In this document: piece by piece, positions 12,955 to 56,043 of the stretch
Layout of the letters: the number at the start of each line of letters is the position of its first letter
How positions within the stretch are numbered: position 1 is the stretch's first letter
Assembly: GCA_014686905.1 (NCBI GenBank)
Contig: GCA_014686905.1_4093.1
Direction: 5' to 3' (one strand)
Origin: a phage
Length of the DNA: 64,000 nucleotides
Made by a program: the position numbers and the translations under genes
Notes under the pieces: model-generated
Told to the model about the DNA's origin: nothing
Databases searched by the model: none
The model's input: only the letters and a program-made list of their open reading frames with translations

Positions 12955-13470
12955 ATGCAACTAACAAATTTTAAGATGTATGAAAAAGAAGGTGGTAATC
13001 CTAATTCTTTGTATATGATGTCCGATGAAGGTATGGATTGGTATGAATCTCGTGAATTGTTTGACATTAATAAAGCAAAATTTATGTATGATACTAATGG
13101 TTTAATTGTTTCAGCATCATATAACATTTATGATCTAGTACCTTTAGGTTTTAGTGTTTCTGAAATTGAATATGATGGTGATATTAACAAACTTTATGGT
13201 ATGGTTTACGATGGAAATACTATTCATGACTATATTGAAACTAAAGAAGAAAAAATTGAACGCCTAAAAAATGAATTATCTAATTTGAAATACATTGCAA
13301 TTCAAGAACTTGGACACTTAAAAACTGCTATGGATCTTGAGTTAGCAACTGATGAAGAAGCTGTATTGTTTGTAAAATTGAAAGATTATGTAACGCAATT
13401 GAATTCAATCAAACCAGCAGACATGATCAAGAAAACATTTTCATTTCCAGTTAAACCGGAAAAAAAATGA
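12955..13470 (+). CDS. tail fibre assembly/chaperone-like protein (ORF opens at 12913)
   Basis: AAGGAA before the ATG at 12955; size and position right after the fibre gene; weak motif support only. Confidence 0.5.
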   Translation: MQLTNFKMYEKEGGNPNSLYMMSDEGMDWYESRELFDINKAKFMYDTNGLIVSASYNIYDLVPLGFSVSEIEYDGDINKLYGMVYDGNTIHDYIETKEEKIERLKNELSNLKYIAIQELGHLKTAMDLELATDEEAVLFVKLKDYVTQLNSIKPADMIKKTFSFPVKPEKK

Positions 13471-13500
13471 GACAACACGTAAAGACGTGATACAATTAAG

Positions 13501-13536
13501 TCATCTCACCGATTGTGGTGAGGTGACATTTTTTTG
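13501..13536 (+). terminator. rho-independent terminator after the tail-fibre module
   Basis: TCATCTCACC-loop-GGTGAGGTGA followed by T7. Confidence 0.7.
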
Positions 13537-39876: not shown

Positions 39877-40821
39877 ATGGATATAAACCAAACAGCAACT
39901 GAACTTCAAAAGTTCGCAGATGCACATAATTTGAATGTTGATGTTTCTGTTATTCTTGATAATATGGATGCAGGTGATTTTATCACTTTAAATTCTGCGA
40001 TTGATAATTCTGACAATCGTGAAATATTCCAAATTTTACAAAAATACAAAGCACAGATGAGTGAATGTTATAATTATTTTAGTACTAAAAATGTTAACAA
40101 ACATATTAATGAAAGCACTGAACTTCATAGTATTGTTGATTCAATGTCACTAAAGCAATTAGCAGAAGAGTATCATAAAAATTATACATATTCAGATATA
40201 ACAAAACTAACCACACAAGAATTAAAAGCAATTGTATTTGAAGATTTACAAAATCAAGCCACACAAATGCAAGCAAAACAAATTGCTAAAATGAATGTTT
40301 CTCAGGGTCAACAACAAGTCAATCCACAAACTCAAGCTAAAATGAAACAAGCTGAGTTGCAAAGAAATGCTAATAATATGAAAGTTAGTGTTCCTGGTAC
40401 ACAAAGCGGGACAGATTCGGTTGAACCTGTAGTTGGTGTTGACCCAGGACAAACACCGGAGCAATCATTAGTTATTACTAAAAGTGGGACTAAGCCAAAT
40501 GAGTTGAACGTTTTTCCTTTGAGTGATGTTAATCCTATTGATAATCAAAATAATCCAATTCGTGAAGAAAAATCTCCACAAGAAATTAACAGTGAACTTA
40601 TGGCTAATTCCAGTTTAGAGCCTGATAGTAATCCTGATACACCATCACCATTGTCACATCACGCACCTGGTATGGGCGAAATGATACATGCAATTTCTGA
40701 TATTGAAAAAGAAGATGATATCTATGGTGATGAAAGTGTTATGGCAAACACATCACAATCTGATAATGATGACATGGTAGACCAAATTATCGATTTCTGT
40801 CATCGTATGCGAGGTCGTTAA
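39877..40821 (+). CDS. hypothetical protein, Q/N/S-rich (ORF opens at 39823)
   Basis: TGGAG RBS before the ATG at 39877. Confidence 0.45.
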   Translation: MDINQTATELQKFADAHNLNVDVSVILDNMDAGDFITLNSAIDNSDNREIFQILQKYKAQMSECYNYFSTKNVNKHINESTELHSIVDSMSLKQLAEEYHKNYTYSDITKLTTQELKAIVFEDLQNQATQMQAKQIAKMNVSQGQQQVNPQTQAKMKQAELQRNANNMKVSVPGTQSGTDSVEPVVGVDPGQTPEQSLVITKSGTKPNELNVFPLSDVNPIDNQNNPIREEKSPQEINSELMANSSLEPDSNPDTPSPLSHHAPGMGEMIHAISDIEKEDDIYGDESVMANTSQSDNDDMVDQIIDFCHRMRGR

Positions 40822-41039
40822 TGAGAACAGTACTAAATGTGCATGGTCACAATACAATGGTTTCTAATGAAGAATATAAACTATTACAAAAGATAAAAGC
40901 ACGCGGTACTGTTCCAGTTGAAAAGGTAAATGAATATTATCAGGAATTAGCTGATAAGATGGTATCACGTGGTGTTCTAAATAAAATAGAAAATGATGAC
41001 GGTACTGAATCTTACCAAACAGTTAGGAGTAGTAAATGA
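40821..41039 (+). CDS. hypothetical protein (72 aa)
   Basis: ATGA-type overlap. Confidence 0.4.
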   Translation: MRTVLNVHGHNTMVSNEEYKLLQKIKARGTVPVEKVNEYYQELADKMVSRGVLNKIENDDGTESYQTVRSSK

Positions 41040-41707
41040 ATTACGAATATGATCAACAATCAGTTAATCAGATGGCTGATTTGTTAAGTGGATTGAATGA
41101 CATTGAAGCTGGTGAAACACATAACGCATCGGGGGTTCCATATAAAACTGGTGGTGATATCGGTGCTATGGCTTCTATTTTAACTTCATTAAATGAAGCA
41201 GGTATGGATTATGGTGAACCACAACATCCACATATGGTTCAATACAATTCTCCGTATAATGAACATTTATCAGGGAATTCACCAGTACCTTCGCCACGAC
41301 CATCACAAGCACCTCTTAAACCAAAAACTAATTGGAGTTTAGTGGAAGAAAAAGTACAAGGTACTAAATCTACTAAAGTTTATAGCATTAAGTGTAATCA
41401 TAGTTCACAAATTATCATGAATAATATTATGATGTATGAAGCAGCACTTACATTAGTTAATCTTCTTAATGAAGGAAGAATGTTGACAGATGCAAAAGTA
41501 CTTGGTATAATCAGTTCGGGTCTTCAATACACGAATGTGATTAGTGAAGCATTGAAAGCAGCCCAGAAACGTCAACGCGTACTTAATGAATCGAAGTATG
41601 ATGAAGCAAAAGATTTAGATATAATTATTGCAGAAAAGAAAGCTGAAGCGTATAAATTAAAAGAGCGTGTATTAAACTTTCTAAAAGGCGAAGGTTATAT
41701 AAAGTAA
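41036..41707 (+). CDS. hypothetical protein (223 aa)
   Basis: ATGA overlap; ORF. Confidence 0.45.
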   Translation: MNYEYDQQSVNQMADLLSGLNDIEAGETHNASGVPYKTGGDIGAMASILTSLNEAGMDYGEPQHPHMVQYNSPYNEHLSGNSPVPSPRPSQAPLKPKTNWSLVEEKVQGTKSTKVYSIKCNHSSQIIMNNIMMYEAALTLVNLLNEGRMLTDAKVLGIISSGLQYTNVISEALKAAQKRQRVLNESKYDEAKDLDIIIAEKKAEAYKLKERVLNFLKGEGYIK

Positions 41708-41739
41708 ATAAATGAGTGATATTTTATAAGGAAATACAA

Positions 41740-42372
41740 ATGTCAAAATATAAAAAACTAATGGAAGCAGCTTCTCGTGCAGAAGCTATGAAGTTTATTC
41801 AACTAAATGAATCTAATATTGAAAAAGCAGAAATTGTTCTTTCAGTAAAAGGTGAGATTGTGGATAAACTCCAACGTCAATCTGAGGTTATTAACAACAT
41901 GGGTGTTGACGTACTAGGCCCATTACTTGACCGTATTAAAGCCGAGCAAGGTCTAGATGCTGCACAAAATTTTAGTGATAATGTTCGCCATCTACTACAA
42001 CATGCAGTTACTACCTTAATGGATGTAAAAGACAAAATCAGTACTGAAACACTTAAACTAACTGGTGATATCACTGACGGTCCAGATGTTTCTGATATTG
42101 GAAGTGAAGATGTTGATATTGATATTGCAGCAGATACCCCAACTTTTGATATGGATGCAGACGCAGACTTTGAAGAAGACATTATCTCTGAGCCAGTACC
42201 AACTGAACGTGAAATGAAAGAATCTGTTAAACCAAGTAAAGTTGGTGTAAAAATGGAAAGTATTCGCGGAACTGTGGGTACTAAATACTTTAGTTCAAAA
42301 GAAGAAATGAAAACATGGCTTTCTGAGAATGAAAAGAAAGTTAAACGTGTTCTAGGATACGTTAAAAAATAA
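41740..42372 (+). CDS. hypothetical acidic protein (ORF opens at 41716 with GTG)
   Basis: AAGGAA RBS before the ATG at 41740. Confidence 0.45.
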   Translation: MSKYKKLMEAASRAEAMKFIQLNESNIEKAEIVLSVKGEIVDKLQRQSEVINNMGVDVLGPLLDRIKAEQGLDAAQNFSDNVRHLLQHAVTTLMDVKDKISTETLKLTGDITDGPDVSDIGSEDVDIDIAADTPTFDMDADADFEEDIISEPVPTEREMKESVKPSKVGVKMESIRGTVGTKYFSSKEEMKTWLSENEKKVKRVLGYVKK

Positions 42373-42388
42373 TTAAGGACAATTCTAC

Positions 42389-42724
42389 ATGAGATTTCGT
42401 GATCTTACTGAAGAGGCTCCTGGTAAAGATATACGCAATATGATTACTACTATTGCGTTGTCTTTAGTGTCCACGGGTCGAGAAGAAGTAAATGTTCAAT
42501 CTTTGATTTCTGAAATTAAAAAGAGAACCAACATCGATGTTCCATACAATGTAATGATGGACATTTTGAATTCCCTTCCTTTTGTACAGGATGCTAATTC
42601 TGATGTTGTAACTTTTGCAGGAAATTCAGCAGAAGGTTCAGAAGAAGTCGAGCAAGATTCTGAAGAGCAAGTTGAAGATTGGGCCACAAAAGCTGCTGTG
42701 ACAGCAAATAAACAAAAAAACTGA
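42389..42724 (+). CDS. hypothetical protein (111 aa), acidic C-terminus
   Basis: ORF. Confidence 0.45.
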   Translation: MRFRDLTEEAPGKDIRNMITTIALSLVSTGREEVNVQSLISEIKKRTNIDVPYNVMMDILNSLPFVQDANSDVVTFAGNSAEGSEEVEQDSEEQVEDWATKAAVTANKQKN

Positions 42725-42750
42725 GACAAATTAAAATATAATGCTATAAT
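42723..42750 (+). promoter_or_regulatory. early-type promoter GAGACA-N16-TGcTATAAT
   Basis: Same architecture as at 36334; short leader before 42764. Confidence 0.55.
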
Positions 42751-42763
42751 TAGGAGTACACGG

Positions 42764-43483
42764 ATGTACACACCACCAATTGTTAGCAGATATACATATG
42801 TTGGTTACAATAGAATTGAAGGCGGCCCAGAAGGTCGCCTTTATTCAACTCCAACAGGTAATCTGCCGTCAGTAACAACAATTCTAAGTGCGACCTCGAA
42901 TGACGAAGGTTTAAAGAAATGGAGAGAATTTGTTGGTGAAGAAAAGGCTAATGAGATTACATTAGAAGCATGTACAGTTGGTACTTTTATGCATGAGAAC
43001 TTGGAATTTAGATTGGAAGGAAAGCCAGACCATGAAGGCGGTATGCCAATTCGAGTTCTTGCACGTAGAATGGCTGACAAAATTCAGCAAGAAGCATGGC
43101 CTAGAATTAATGAAGTATGGGGACAGGAAGTCCCATTGTACTATGAAGGTTTATGGGCCGGAACAACTGATTTAGTAGGTGTTCATGATGGAATCCCAAC
43201 CATTATGGATTATAAAAATTCCCGTAAAGTTAAGAAGTGGGGACAAATCGAAAATTATCGTATGCAAATTGCAGCATATGCATTAGCCCATAATCAAATG
43301 TTTGGTACTAATATAGAACGTGGTGTGATTTTCATCTGTGTAAGAAAAGATCCTAACAATCTACAATATCAAGAGTTTGTCATAGAAGGTCAAGACTTCA
43401 AAGATGCAGTCAATATGTGGATTGAACGTGTAGAACAATACTATATTTTACGTGGAGAAATTGAATCAAATGGAGCAGCATAA
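42764..43483 (+). CDS. putative PD-(D/E)xK family nuclease
   Basis: N-terminal PSVTTIL; later D...D.K-type cluster (TDLVGVHDGIPTIMDYKNSRK); tentative. Confidence 0.45.
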   Translation: MYTPPIVSRYTYVGYNRIEGGPEGRLYSTPTGNLPSVTTILSATSNDEGLKKWREFVGEEKANEITLEACTVGTFMHENLEFRLEGKPDHEGGMPIRVLARRMADKIQQEAWPRINEVWGQEVPLYYEGLWAGTTDLVGVHDGIPTIMDYKNSRKVKKWGQIENYRMQIAAYALAHNQMFGTNIERGVIFICVRKDPNNLQYQEFVIEGQDFKDAVNMWIERVEQYYILRGEIESNGAA

Positions 43484-44024
43484 AAAAATGAAACAAGATC
43501 TATATACAATTCGTGCACTAGTAAGTAAAGGTTATGATTTAGAAGAAGTAATTAAACTTAGTGAAGAAGAGATTGATAAACTTGATTTATCAAATAAGCT
43601 AATTCTAAATATCAAAGATTATAAACAACGTGGTGCTAAACCTGTTGAAGAAATTAAAGAACAAATTGCACAAGATATTAGTGTTGATGAAGTATCACGC
43701 AATGTACCACCAGAAGTTATCCAAGAGTATGTTGTTGATAGTGAAGAACAAGTTAAAGTTTCTGAAGAAGTTGAAATTATTGCAGAAGAACTTGCTCCTG
43801 AATTGGAAGAAGATGAAGTCGTTATTGAGCGTGTTGTTTCATCTAAAGAAGATTTGGACATTATCAAAGAAGCATTACAGACTAAAGAATTTAAAAGTGT
43901 TTCCAACTATGTTAAACATTTAAAATCTTTAGTACCAGAACAAATTTTATCTTCTGTAGATAGCTCAGTTGTATCTCAACTAATTAATGAGCGTATTGCG
44001 GAAGTTAAAGAAAAAGCTAAATAA
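43470..44024 (+). CDS. hypothetical acidic protein (ORF opens at 43452 with GTG)
   Basis: ORF; E/K-rich. Confidence 0.45.
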   Translation: MEQHKKMKQDLYTIRALVSKGYDLEEVIKLSEEEIDKLDLSNKLILNIKDYKQRGAKPVEEIKEQIAQDISVDEVSRNVPPEVIQEYVVDSEEQVKVSEEVEIIAEELAPELEEDEVVIERVVSSKEDLDIIKEALQTKEFKSVSNYVKHLKSLVPEQILSSVDSSVVSQLINERIAEVKEKAK

Positions 44025-44052
44025 TCCTATAATACTATAGGAGATAGTTTTT

Positions 44053-44634
44053 ATGGCACAACAACAAATTGCTTTACAACAAGTAAGAACTGGTAAACAG
44101 AGAGACTTACCTGATGCATTAGAAAAAGGTCAGATAGGATTCAGTACTGATGTGGGTCGTGTTTTTATTGGCCTTCCATCATCATCTGACCCCGCCAGCT
44201 TAGTTGCAGGTAGAACTTGGACTACTGATCCAAATTCAGGTAAAGAAAACGTAGAAATAATTACAGAATTTTCACCGTGGAGAACGGTATCAAAAATAAT
44301 TAACAGACCGTTTAAAGTTGATCTTCCACAAAATCAAGAAAGTATAGAAGTTATTCTTGAAAGTGAAAGTAGAGTATTCATCGATTATATTGCATATGAT
44401 GATACCGAAACGGTTTTGGAATCAGGAACTATTCAAATTGTAGCTGCTGGTACAAACACGATGATTGCACAGTCAAATAATACAAATAGAACTGACGCAA
44501 TTATTTCTATCTCATTTGAAGATCCTGCATATGATTCTACAACTGGAAATATGCAATTTAACATAGTTAACTCGGATTATTTAAATTCAGGATATCATAT
44601 AGAATTTGTATATCGTGGGTGGGACAAACCTTAA
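44053..44634 (+). CDS. hypothetical protein (193 aa)
   Basis: AGGAG RBS; terminator follows. Confidence 0.5.
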   Translation: MAQQQIALQQVRTGKQRDLPDALEKGQIGFSTDVGRVFIGLPSSSDPASLVAGRTWTTDPNSGKENVEIITEFSPWRTVSKIINRPFKVDLPQNQESIEVILESESRVFIDYIAYDDTETVLESGTIQIVAAGTNTMIAQSNNTNRTDAIISISFEDPAYDSTTGNMQFNIVNSDYLNSGYHIEFVYRGWDKP

Positions 44635-44653
44635 AAGGCGTCCCGCCTTTTTC
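44633..44653 (+). terminator. rho-independent terminator
   Basis: AAAAGGCG-TCC-CGCCTTTT followed by TCTT. Confidence 0.7.
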
Positions 44654-44697
44654 TTCCACTAAAAAAAGAAATTTACATCAAAAAACAAGGATGACAC

Positions 44698-47016
44698 ATG
44701 ATTAACGTAACCAAGCGTAATGGAATGAAAGAGCCGTTATCATTGGATAAGATCCATCAAATTTTATTTTTCGCTGCTGAAGGTTTAAGTGGTATTTCAG
44801 TTTCTGAAATTGAAATCCGAGCACAGCTTCAGTTTTATGAAGGTATTGAAACTAGTACTATTCATGATATTCTTATTAAAGCAGCAGCAGAACTTATTTC
44901 AGAAGATACACCTAATTACCAATATGTTGCTGGAAGACTATTAAACTATAGTATTCGTAAGCAAGTATATGGGCAGTATGACCCAATTAAATATACTGCT
45001 CATCTTCAAGAAATGGTTGATACCAAAATATATGATCCTGAAATTCTTGAGAAATATACTCTTCAAGAAATAGAAGAGCTTGGACGTTATATCAAACATA
45101 AACGTGACGATAAATTTACTTATGTTGCAATGCGTCAATGGGAAGGAAAATACCTTTACAAAAATCGCGTTACTAAGAAAATTTATGAAACTCCACAAAT
45201 GGCATATATGACTATTGCAGCAATCATCTTTATGGAGTATGATCGTTCTGTTCGTATGTCATATGTTAAAAAGTTTTATGATGCAGTAAGTAACTTTGAC
45301 ATTAGTCTTCCTACGCCTATTATGGCTGGTCTACGTACAAATACACGTCAGTTTAGCTCTTGTGTAGTACTAAACGTTGGTGACAGCTTGGATAGTATTG
45401 GTTCCTCTAACCACGCTATTCTACGTTATATTTCACGTAAAGCTGGTCTTGGTATTAATATGGGCCGCATTCGTGCTCTGGACTCCGAGATTCGTTCAGG
45501 TGATGCAGTACACACTGGGCTGATTCCGTTCATTGCAGCTACTGCTAAGACTGTTAAAAGCTGTTCACAAGGTGGTGTTCGTGGTGGTGCAGCAACTGTT
45601 CACTTCCCATTGTGGCATTTGGAATTTGATAACTTGGTAGTCCTTAAAAATAACAAAGGTACTGAGTTTAACCGTGTGCGTCAACTGGACTATTGTTTCC
45701 AAGTAAACAAAACTTTGTATCAACGTTTGGTTGATGGAAAGAATATTACATTCTTTAGTCCTAATGAAGTCCCTGGGCTATATGAAGCATTCTGCTCTGA
45801 TCAAAAAGAATTTGAAAAGTTATATAAAAAATACGAAGCTGACCAAAGCATCCGTAAAAAATCCGTACCTGCTGTTGAAGTATTCAGTACTTTAATGACT
45901 GAGCGTGCTGAAACTGGGCGTATCTATATTCAAAATATTGACCATGCAAACACTCATTCAACATTTATTGAATCTATTGCACCTATTGAACAATCCAACT
46001 TGTGTCAAGAAATCGCACTACCATCTGTGCCATTTGATGACATTAATACTGGGGAAGGTTTGATTAGTTTATGTACATTGAGTGCAATCAACTGGGGTAA
46101 CTTTGACCGTCCAGAAGATATGGAAACGGCATGTGATCTTTCTGTTCGTGCTCTTGATTCTCTATTAGACTATCAAGACTACCCAGTAGTTCATGCTGAC
46201 CGTGCTACAAAAATGTATCGTCCACTAGGTGTTGGTATTATTAACTTTGCATACTTCCTTGCTAAACGTGGTTTACGTTATAATGAAGCAGCACTAGAAA
46301 CAGTTAACGAGTGGGCCGAGGCATGGTCTTACTATCTAATTAAATCTTCTGTACAGCTTGCTAAAGAGAAAGGTAAGTGTGAAGGATTTGATAATCTAAA
46401 ATATGCCAAAGGTATCCTTCCAATCGATACTTATAAATCGGACATTGATGAATTAGTAACTAAAGAACTAAAACAAGATTGGGAATCCTTACGTGCCGAT
46501 ATCAAAGAATATGGTATTCGTAACGCAACAACAATGGCATTAATGCCAGCAGAAACAAGTGCACAAATCAGTAACAGTACTAACGGTATTGAAAAGCCAC
46601 GTTCTCTTGTAACGAAGAAACTATCTAAGGATGGTATTCTTAAACAAGTAGTTCCAGAAATCAATAAGTTGAAAAACAAATATGATTTACTATGGGATCA
46701 GAAAGATAACATTGGTTATCTACAAATCTGTGGTGTTCTACAAAAATACATTGACCAAAGTATCAGTGTTAATACTAGTTATAACCCAATACACTTCCCT
46801 GATGGTAAGTTGCCAATGTCAACTCTTCTAACTGAACTTATGTATGCATATAAAGTTGGTTTGAAAAATCTTTATTATCATAATACAAATGATGGTTCAG
46901 ATGAAGTAGACGTTGAAAAAGTACTGAAAGAAGCTGCCAAACCAGAATCTGGACAATTTGTATTACCATCACTTCCTGATTTGGATGAAGGTGATTGTGA
47001 TAGTTGTAAAATCTAA
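44698..47016 (+). CDS. nrdA: ribonucleotide reductase class Ia large subunit
   Basis: N-terminal ATP-cone-like VTKRNG; active-site SNLCQEIALP; C-terminal CDSC cysteine pair; 772 aa. Confidence 0.9.
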   Translation: MINVTKRNGMKEPLSLDKIHQILFFAAEGLSGISVSEIEIRAQLQFYEGIETSTIHDILIKAAAELISEDTPNYQYVAGRLLNYSIRKQVYGQYDPIKYTAHLQEMVDTKIYDPEILEKYTLQEIEELGRYIKHKRDDKFTYVAMRQWEGKYLYKNRVTKKIYETPQMAYMTIAAIIFMEYDRSVRMSYVKKFYDAVSNFDISLPTPIMAGLRTNTRQFSSCVVLNVGDSLDSIGSSNHAILRYISRKAGLGINMGRIRALDSEIRSGDAVHTGLIPFIAATAKTVKSCSQGGVRGGAATVHFPLWHLEFDNLVVLKNNKGTEFNRVRQLDYCFQVNKTLYQRLVDGKNITFFSPNEVPGLYEAFCSDQKEFEKLYKKYEADQSIRKKSVPAVEVFSTLMTERAETGRIYIQNIDHANTHSTFIESIAPIEQSNLCQEIALPSVPFDDINTGEGLISLCTLSAINWGNFDRPEDMETACDLSVRALDSLLDYQDYPVVHADRATKMYRPLGVGIINFAYFLAKRGLRYNEAALETVNEWAEAWSYYLIKSSVQLAKEKGKCEGFDNLKYAKGILPIDTYKSDIDELVTKELKQDWESLRADIKEYGIRNATTMALMPAETSAQISNSTNGIEKPRSLVTKKLSKDGILKQVVPEINKLKNKYDLLWDQKDNIGYLQICGVLQKYIDQSISVNTSYNPIHFPDGKLPMSTLLTELMYAYKVGLKNLYYHNTNDGSDEVDVEKVLKEAAKPESGQFVLPSLPDLDEGDCDSCKI

Positions 47017-47022
47017 TTTAAG

Positions 47023-47048
47023 ATCCCGCTTCGGCGGGATTATTATTT
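47023..47048 (+). terminator. rho-independent terminator between nrdA and nrdB
   Basis: ATCCCGC-TTCG-GCGGGAT followed by TATTATTT. Confidence 0.75.
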
Positions 47049-47070: not shown

Positions 47071-48195
47071 ATGTCAGTTTTCAAAATTAACGAGAAGTCT
47101 CACCTAGAAAAAAATATGTTTTTTGATGAAAGTGTTGATATCCAACGCTTTGAAAGTAACAAATACTCTACACTTGAAAAACTAACAGAGCAACAGAAAA
47201 GTTTCTTCTGGACTCCTGGTGAAGTTGACGTATCTAAAGATAAAATTGATTTTGCCAACCTTAATGATTCCGAGAAGCACATTTTTACCTCTAACTTGAA
47301 ACGTCAAATTCTTCTTGATTCCGTACAAGGTCGTGGTCCAAACCTAATGTTACTTCCATATGCATCTCTACCTGAACTAGAGAACTTTATAGAGACATGG
47401 GCATTCTTTGAAGGTGCGATTCATAGCAAATCATACACTCACATTATTCGTAACATTTATCCTAATCCATCTGAAGTATTTGATACTATGTTGGACATTC
47501 CAGAAATCACAGATTGTGCGGCTGATGTTTCCAAATACTACGATGAACTTGATGTATTAGGAACTTTATACCGTGCATTGGGCGTTGGGACACATACAAT
47601 CAATGGTGAAACAGTTGAAATTAGTTTGTACGAACTAAAGAAAAAACTTTGGTTGTGTCTGAATAGTATTAACATTCTTGAAGGTGTTCGTTTTTATGCA
47701 AGCTTTGCGTGTTCTTGGGCGTTTGCTGAAAACAATCTAATGGAAGGTAATGCTAAGATTATCCGTCTAATCTGTCGTGATGAAAACCTACACCTAGCAG
47801 CAACCCAAATGATTCTACGTCTTCTGAAAAAAGAAGATCCAGATATGGTAAAAATAGCAGAAGAGTGTTATGATGAAGTACTGGAAATGTTTATGTCTGC
47901 TATCCGTCAAGAAGAAGCTTGGGCAGACTTCCTCTTTAAAGATGGTTCAATCATTGGGCTGAATGCAGAAATCCTAAAACAATATGTTCGTTGGATTGGT
48001 TCTAAGCGTATGACTGCACTAGGAATTAAATGTCCATATACCGTATCTAAGAGTAACCCACTACCTTGGACTGAGCATTGGGTTAGTGGTGGTTCAGTAC
48101 AAGTTGCACCACAAGAAACTGAAATAAGTTCTTATATCATTGGTGGTATTGTGAATGATATCCAAGTAGATACATTCACACCATTCAAACTATAA
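47071..48195 (+). CDS. nrdB: ribonucleotide reductase class Ia small subunit
   Basis: Di-iron ligand motifs (including DENLH); size 374 aa; immediately after nrdA. Confidence 0.88.
   Translation: MSVFKINEKSHLEKNMFFDESVDIQRFESNKYSTLEKLTEQQKSFFWTPGEVDVSKDKIDFANLNDSEKHIFTSNLKRQILLDSVQGRGPNLMLLPYASLPELENFIETWAFFEGAIHSKSYTHIIRNIYPNPSEVFDTMLDIPEITDCAADVSKYYDELDVLGTLYRALGVGTHTINGETVEISLYELKKKLWLCLNSINILEGVRFYASFACSWAFAENNLMEGNAKIIRLICRDENLHLAATQMILRLLKKEDPDMVKIAEECYDEVLEMFMSAIRQEEAWADFLFKDGSIIGLNAEILKQYVRWIGSKRMTALGIKCPYTVSKSNPLPWTEHWVSGGSVQVAPQETEISSYIIGGIVNDIQVDTFTPFKL

Positions 48196-54980: not shown

Positions 54981-56043
<1,063 letters not shown>

Follow-up and report, generated by a model that had tools for sequence, protein, structure and literature searches.

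We assign the gene at positions 42764 to 43483 of the analyzed phage DNA (a stretch of 64,000 nt, referred to as the window) to the metal-dependent RecB-type PD-(D/E)XK nucleases of the MGME1/Ddk1-like family, with the trimming of flaps and tails as its probable job. The open reading frame and its downstream neighbor are:

42764 to 43483, + strand: nuclease coding sequence with ATG start, 239 amino acids and TAA stop; MGME1-like PD-(D/E)XK (RecB-type) exonuclease
43470 to 44024, + strand: downstream gene for an acidic protein, start as in the slurp01 annotation; 14-nt overlap with the 3' end of the nuclease gene

Over 3 kb (positions 42000 to 45000), the window is 100% identical to Asteriusvirus jumbo coliphages (PBECO4, 121Q, slurp01, SHEFM2K and others). 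Substitutions at codon positions 1, 2 and 3 of the nuclease gene number 36, 15 and 98 relative to the RaK2 ortholog and 34, 22 and 109 relative to the CBB ortholog. They are thus found mostly at third codon positions, which indicates that the frame is under purifying selection. The minus-strand ORFs that overlap the nuclease gene lack comparable codon-position support in these two comparisons. An Rfam scan of positions 40000 to 46000 matched no family.

The identical protein is present in GenBank as “exonuclease”, “putative exonuclease” or “PD-(D/E)XK nuclease superfamily protein”. Because the gene is already annotated, the family is abundant and the relation to MGME1 has been published, the gene call itself adds nothing. 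Naming is also inconsistent, with identical or orthologous proteins recorded as “CRISPR-associated protein”, “type II restriction endonuclease” or “hypothetical protein” (e.g., in MK327931 G17, OP292654 XbC2, MK268344 Munch, KU574722 CBB and OQ708376 CRJP21). The first two of these names are unsupported by the tests reported below.

Family, fold and active site

A PD-(D/E)xK nuclease had tentatively been proposed for this gene in the preliminary description, and this assignment is borne out. The Pfam domain PDDEXK_1 (PF12705) is matched with 24.2 bits (gathering cut-off 22 bits, E 3.7e-5) and is precomputed on many homologs. PHROG 298 (“exonuclease”) matches over the full length of the nuclease (2e-64). 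With the single sequence as query, human MGME1 is the sole sequence match in the PDB (E 0.0045). When a profile of 37 homologs is used, the MGME1 match improves to E 4.6e-16 (positions 32-232), and other nucleases in the PDB remain unmatched. The phage protein and human MGME1 share 22% identity. Metagenomic relatives have been named “genome maintenance exonuclease 1” by JGI.

An AlphaFold2 model computed from the 37-homolog alignment (pLDDT 95.2, pTM 0.90) has the RecB-type nuclease fold. The best nine Foldseek matches against the PDB are all MGME1 (E 5e-11, TM 0.68-0.81), followed by a putative exonuclease from Eubacterium rectale, RecE, Cas4 and EXO5, all with E 1e-5 or weaker. The model includes a two-helix arch over the active site (helices 48-57 and 59-84), which corresponds to the helical arch of MGME1.

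The active site was analyzed in an alignment of the window protein with its relatives from RaK2, CBB, a PA5oct-like Pseudomonas phage, Kuttervirus, a cyanophage and a Vibrio phage, together with the core of human MGME1. Invariant in this alignment are S36, T38, W53, G58, T66, G73, H77, E81, E122, G133, D136, D149, K151, Q168 and Y172. Eleven of these (S36, T38, W53, H77, E81, E122, D136, D149, K151, Q168 and Y172) correspond one-to-one to S132, T134, W152, H180, E184, E223, D238, D251, K253, Q271 and Y275 of MGME1. The catalytic D...DxK residues and the accessory His, Glu and QhxxY are also invariant in the 37 homologs. Thus, the D...D.K-like cluster noted in the preliminary description is a true motif II/III (D136 ... 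D149-Y150-K151), and the conservation of the catalytic residues goes along with the match to a nuclease fold. None of the motif residues in the alignment shows signs of an inactivated enzyme. The motifs are located as follows:

42869 to 42877, + strand: S36-V37-T38, DNA-backbone-binding motif (MGME1 Ser132/Thr134); invariant, function taken from PMC6237815
42992 to 43006, + strand: H77...E81 on the long arch helix (MGME1 motif Ia with the metal ligand His180, and Glu184), based on invariance and on the model
43127 to 43129, + strand: E122, motif I (MGME1 Glu223); invariant
43169 to 43171, + strand: D136, motif II (MGME1 Asp238, ligand of both metals); invariant
43208 to 43216, + strand: D149-Y150-K151, motif III, (D/E)xK (MGME1 Asp251-Trp252-Lys253); D149 and K151 invariant
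43265 to 43279, + strand: Q168-I-A-A-Y172, motif IV, QhxxY, a hallmark of the RecB type (MGME1 Gln271/Tyr275); invariant

The roles of the corresponding MGME1 residues are known from structures and mutants (PMC6237815). H180, D238 and D251 coordinate metal, E223 gives water-mediated support to the second metal, and K253 orients the nucleophile. Q271, Y275, S132 and T134 contact DNA phosphates. W152 is part of the helical arch, beneath which single-stranded DNA is threaded (PMC6237815). The motif names, including the motif I Glu and the Ia (V) His, are also used in PMC3597694. By homology, a free single-stranded end would thread under the arch of the phage enzyme, H77, D136 and D149 would bind the metal ions, and E122 would assist via water. 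K151 would place the attacking water, with Q168, Y172, S36 and T38 holding the phosphates. We therefore predict an exonuclease specific for single strands that depends on a free end and trims away overhangs and flaps, not a sequence-specific endonuclease.

There are, however, differences to human MGME1 (Ddk1, C20orf72; PDB 5ZYT-5ZYW, 8XA9). The phage protein lacks the mitochondrial targeting sequence and the disordered N-terminal region. It is viral and has a phage promoter, and its MGME1-type activity is a prediction. The duplex-unwinding pin of MGME1, F147 (PMC11040146), lies in a region (Q145-V146-F147) that is opposite a three-residue gap in all aligned phage sequences. The pin is a feature of the human enzyme and does not define the wider family. 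The C-terminal metal ligand Glu344 also has no counterpart in the phage proteins. Given the deleted pin and the missing Glu344, substrate handling may differ in detail.

The family is widespread. A profile search of metagenomes (1.84 billion representatives, clustered at 50% identity) resulted in 8,601 clusters with E<=1e-3, 802 of them with E<=1e-30. By tblastn, 982 phage records carry the family, mainly cyanomyoviruses, Ackermannviridae, Rak2-like and PA5oct-like jumbo phages, and Vibrio and Rhizobium phages. When 185,579 species genomes were scanned with a strict pattern, seven loci were obtained, all on metagenome-assembled contigs. Judged by this one pattern, the close clade looks viral. 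The window protein is a member of PHROG 298, which includes RaK2 gp398 (“recB”), S-PM2 p196 and the exonucleases of Kuttervirus/Vi01-like phages and of T4-like cyanophages, and it differs from these in nothing essential. Ddk1/MGME1 has been reported to cluster with exonucleases from Caudovirales whose hosts are cyanobacteria and proteobacteria, and a phage origin was proposed for it, as for POLRMT, POLG and Twinkle (Szczesny et al. 2013, PMC3597694). A literature search found no biochemical or genetic work on a phage member of the MGME1-like family.

Gene neighborhood and candidate roles

Genes for virion proteins, then the exonuclease, then one or two unknowns and finally nrdA is the order common to Asteriusvirus, RaK2, CBB and PA5oct-like phages. 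The proteome-based annotation of RaK2 marks the neighbors as virion proteins and leaves the exonuclease unmarked. Among 80 environmental viral contigs with exonucleases of 43-54% identity, a relative of the virion-protein family is encoded upstream in 62, and nrdA is found within three genes downstream in 37. The recurring environmental order is virion-protein gene, small ORF, exonuclease, and, further downstream, nrdA. This synteny, in which recombination genes are absent from the immediate vicinity, reflects the shared ancestry of one viral lineage (the Rak2/PA5oct clade) and is therefore uninformative on function. Independent, more distant lineages of the family tell more about function and have other neighbors. 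In Kuttervirus, the exonuclease gene is positioned between those for a UvsY-like mediator and a UvsW-type helicase and adjoins clamp and clamp-loader genes. In a Vibrio phage, it is followed by genes for a DNA helicase and for clamp and clamp loader. In a cyanophage, the order is PhoH, exonuclease and gp33, with thyX nearby. The contexts within PHROG 298 thus vary (UvsY-exonuclease-helicase, PhoH-exonuclease-gp33, and virion genes-exonuclease-nrdA in the window). The window also codes for a DnaB-like helicase, NrdAB, RNase HI, a Dda/RecD-like helicase and topoisomerase II subunits. The nuclease gene is part of a region of replication, recombination and nucleotide metabolism, and its product is not reported as a virion protein.

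The downstream gene is probably in the same transcription unit as the nuclease gene. It has no match in Pfam, NCBIfam or PADLOC, and its 30 homologs are confined to close relatives, so that it appears as a fast-evolving orphan. In the environmental relatives, the gene 3' of the exonuclease is a different one, coding for a pectate-lyase-like protein. The analysis thus gave no evidence of the downstream gene being a nuclease partner, and this idea was set aside. Its start codon is ambiguous (GTG 43452, ATG 43470 as in slurp01, or ATG 43488). The first two candidates overlap the nuclease gene, and the PHROG match of the protein starts near ATG 43488.

Two side observations concern the surroundings. 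RaK2 has a gene for a Hef-like homing endonuclease (RaK2 locus L002:213-1946) three genes 5' of the exonuclease, which is absent at the equivalent position of the window. The gap between nrdA (ending at 47016) and nrdB (starting at 47071) contains a GC-rich, terminator-like hairpin, GATCCCGCTTCGGCGGGATT, with a T-rich tail (47022-47041).

Human MGME1 is an end-dependent, single-strand-specific and bidirectional exonuclease that trims flaps arising from strand-displacement synthesis (PMC11040146). On account of this activity, flap and tail trimming in phage replication and recombination is the most likely role of the phage enzyme. Substrate, direction of digestion and role are predicted here by analogy, from homology to one human enzyme with 22% identity. 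The nuclease would trim single-stranded flaps and tails that arise from T4-style recombination-dependent replication and would act in lagging-strand completion and strand joining. The gene set of Rak2-like phages also includes a T4 rnh-type flap nuclease, RNase HI, a ligase and gp46/47 (PMC5259590). Given the T4 rnh-type nuclease, RNase HI and gp46/47, the trimming role would be redundant or auxiliary. The same enzymes, together with the ligase, weaken the idea that the nuclease replaces a missing flap endonuclease, as in a mitochondria-like combination of RNase H and MGME1 (PMC5259590). The preliminary description had offered recombination or anti-restriction as possible functions. Recombination is plausible, considering the distant homologs encoded between uvsY and a UvsW-type helicase gene; for anti-restriction, no support was obtained.

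The main rival is nucleotide scavenging, in which single-stranded or unwound fragments of host DNA would be degraded to mononucleotides for the dNTP supply of the phage. We regard this as unlikely, even though nrdA is close by (within three genes) in Asteriusvirus, RaK2, CBB, PA5oct-like phages and the 37 environmental loci mentioned above, the cyanophage exonuclease gene adjoins phoH and is near thyX, and human MGME1 contributes to the degradation of linear mtDNA (PMC11040146). The nrdA linkage, being the synteny of one lineage, is not independent evidence, and scavenging is at odds with the other lineages, in which the gene neighbors those for UvsY, a UvsW-type helicase and the clamp (Kuttervirus) or those for a DNA helicase and the clamp (Vibrio phage). 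Furthermore, an enzyme acting on single-stranded ends needs a helicase or endonuclease partner to attack a duplex chromosome, and none is encoded adjacently. A function of the RecE/lambda-Exo type, i.e., 5'-to-3' resection of double-stranded ends for an annealing protein as part of a two-component recombinase, is improbable. MGME1 is clearly closer in sequence and fold, and there is no significant sequence match to E. coli RecE or lambda exonuclease, nor any sign of their toroidal oligomer. The flanking proteins have no match in Pfam, and none of them matches an annealase in PHROG; the gene that overlaps the nuclease gene at its 3' end lacks an annotation and has a narrow distribution. Rak2-like phages use instead the T4-type UvsX/UvsY/gp46-47 pathway (PMC5259590).

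Two further readings originate from database names. In G17 and XbC2, the protein is annotated as CRISPR-associated, which would imply a Cas4-like or anti-defense nuclease that interferes with host CRISPR adaptation or attacks defense nucleic acid. The phage nuclease shares the RecB-type catalytic core with Cas4, and there are weak matches to TIGR00372 (27.1 bits) and to Cas4 from PADLOC (8e-7), restricted to the catalytic core (residues 122-204), as well as to PHROG 1706 (3e-8). The TIGR00372 score is, however, far below the curated cut-off of 65. Only two cysteines are present (C70 and C192), neither of which is conserved in the 37-homolog alignment, so that the four-cysteine Fe-S cluster is lacking. 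Membership in the Cas4 family was rejected on the basis of the score and the missing cysteines. As the neighbors are virion proteins, unknowns and NrdAB, with no cas genes nearby and no other PADLOC hits, a Cas4-like function is also very improbable. The annotation as a type II restriction endonuclease (CBB, Erwinia pEa_SNUABM phages, Munch and Vibrio 2.275.O) has in its favor only that the PD-(D/E)XK fold is shared and that GenBank records carry such product names. The motif Ia His and QhxxY are marks of RecB-type exonucleases, and on these motifs the restriction enzyme was rejected. The arch of MGME1 admits single strands only (PMC11040146), and no methyltransferase is encoded adjacently. 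We consider this reading extremely unlikely.

The promoter class upstream of the nuclease gene

The gene was described previously as following a GAGACA promoter, which is confirmed. The upstream elements are:

42722 to 42729, + strand: box TGAGACAA at the -35 position; its first three bases, TGA, double as the stop codon of the virion-protein gene located 5' of it (42389-42724)
42742 to 42750, + strand: extended -10 element TGcTATAAT, with TG preceding the hexamer TATAAT (42745-42750)
42752 to 42756, + strand: Shine-Dalgarno sequence AGGAG, located 3' of the -10 box and 5' of the predicted start site, with 7 nt up to the ATG

GAGACA (42723-42728) is separated from TATAAT (42745-42750) by 16 nt. 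There are three instances of the pattern GAGACA-N16-TATAAT in the window (0.11 expected). For TGAGACAA-N15-TAYAAT, there are five occurrences (13468, 17407, 36333, 42722 and 59045), compared to 0.02 expected, and none of 100 shuffles reaches five. A looser pattern (GARACR-N15-17-TAnnnT) is not enriched in the window (10 observed, 10.6 expected). All five TGAGACAA promoters are intergenic and on the + strand, which is the coding strand. An A/T tract precedes most of them, and four of the five have the extended -10 TGn. In three cases (13468, 36333 and 42722), the upstream gene terminates with the TGA of the box, so that the coding end overlaps the box. The genes located 3' of these promoters include one that precedes the gene for the DnaB-like helicase, the exonuclease gene and that for the large subunit of topoisomerase II.

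“Divergent RpoD-like” promoters, with TGAAACG at -35 and a normal -10 box, have been described for CBB and GAP32, where they precede genes of DNA synthesis (PMC5259590). The TGAGACAA class agrees with them in its architecture and in being associated with such genes. The box differs, however (TGAAACG versus TGAGACAA), and the window class usually has the extended -10 TGn; the start sites of both classes are predicted positions. The CBB ortholog of the nuclease gene has TGAAACA-N16-TATAAT at the equivalent position, and the promoter site is kept before the orthologs from CBB, RaK2 and the locus L008.

Two other sites were noticed. At the TGAGACAA promoter at 13468 (-10 box at 13491-13496), a strong terminator-like hairpin follows after 4 nt, with a 12-bp stem (13500-13527) and then a run of seven T (all within 13468-13535). 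The predicted start would be inside the 5' arm of the hairpin, which might represent an attenuator, a tiny RNA or a terminator of the upstream gene. At 41483-41511, there is a sigma-70 promoter that fits the consensus perfectly (TTGACA-17-TATAAT with TG, 12/12 matches), inside the coding ORF 41036-41707 and about 200 nt 5' of the next gene, which starts at 41716.

Leader geometry and predicted leaderless expression

The leader had been called unusually short, and at the sequence level it is. From the end of the -10 box (42750) to the ATG (42764) there are 13 nt, the shortest distance among the five promoters (the others range from 29 to 65 nt). If the sigma-70 spacing is as usual, transcription would start at about 42756-42758. 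The leader would then comprise 6-8 nt and be devoid of AGGAG, which would serve read-through transcripts only. Read-through is plausible, as there is no terminator between the upstream gene and the nuclease gene. The geometry of -10 box, AGGAG and ATG is also found in CBB and L008 (13 nt), and the gap is 17 nt in RaK2. On the coding strand of the window, no other gene has a -10 box abutting its ATG.

In the PA5oct-like phage, the promoter (TTGACA-N17-TATAAT) ends 7 nt before the ATG, and there is no possible start codon upstream. The GenBank record of PA5oct contains CDS features only, with no annotated promoters; the PA5oct paper mentions promoters around start sites. This arrangement was analyzed in 78 scorable environmental loci (L009-L087), using the other ORFs of the same loci for comparison. 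A TAYAAT that ends 5-9 nt before the ATG (mode 6) is found for 45 of the 78 exonuclease genes (58%) but for only 8 of 854 other ORFs (0.9%), counts that overstate independence because the loci are related. The same applies to the full -35/-10 promoter at that position (33/78 versus 7/828) and to Shine-Dalgarno-like motifs upstream, which are rare for exonuclease genes (5/78) and common for the other ORFs (322/828). The start codons of the exonuclease genes are confirmed by a conserved MY.P N-terminus. A promoter-abutting arrangement was also observed at L004:2950-2997.

We predict from these patterns that in the wider clade the exonuclease gene, and almost only this gene, has a leaderless mRNA. 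The 13-nt arrangement of the coliphages appears to be derived from this by insertion of a ribosome-binding site. Initiation factor IF3 disfavors leaderless initiation. The window codes for an IF3 homolog (54981-55484, with domains IF3_N and IF3_C), and a homolog of a ClpS-like adaptor is encoded next (55498-56043). IF3 homologs have been noted previously in Rak2-like phages (PMC5259590). A link between the phage IF3 and the exonuclease leader is speculative.

A broader scenario is possible, although we put it forward only tentatively. In the clade of jumbo-phage relatives, the start-abutting promoter would result in a leaderless mRNA specific to the exonuclease, and the 13-nt gap would be derived from it by insertion of a Shine-Dalgarno sequence. 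This could keep a potentially harmful nuclease at a low level or gate it temporally, maybe via the phage IF3. The viral family may also have been the source of mitochondrial MGME1 in animals and their relatives.

The precise assignment as MGME1-like, and not as Cas4 or a restriction enzyme, corrects several database product names, and the residue-level catalytic map makes the phage enzyme easy to test. The one point worth following up is the start-abutting promoter, which is found on the exonuclease gene, and on almost no other gene, across many diverged relatives. If the leaderless arrangement is confirmed, phages of Gram-negative hosts would offer a clean natural case in which one specific gene is expressed without a leader.
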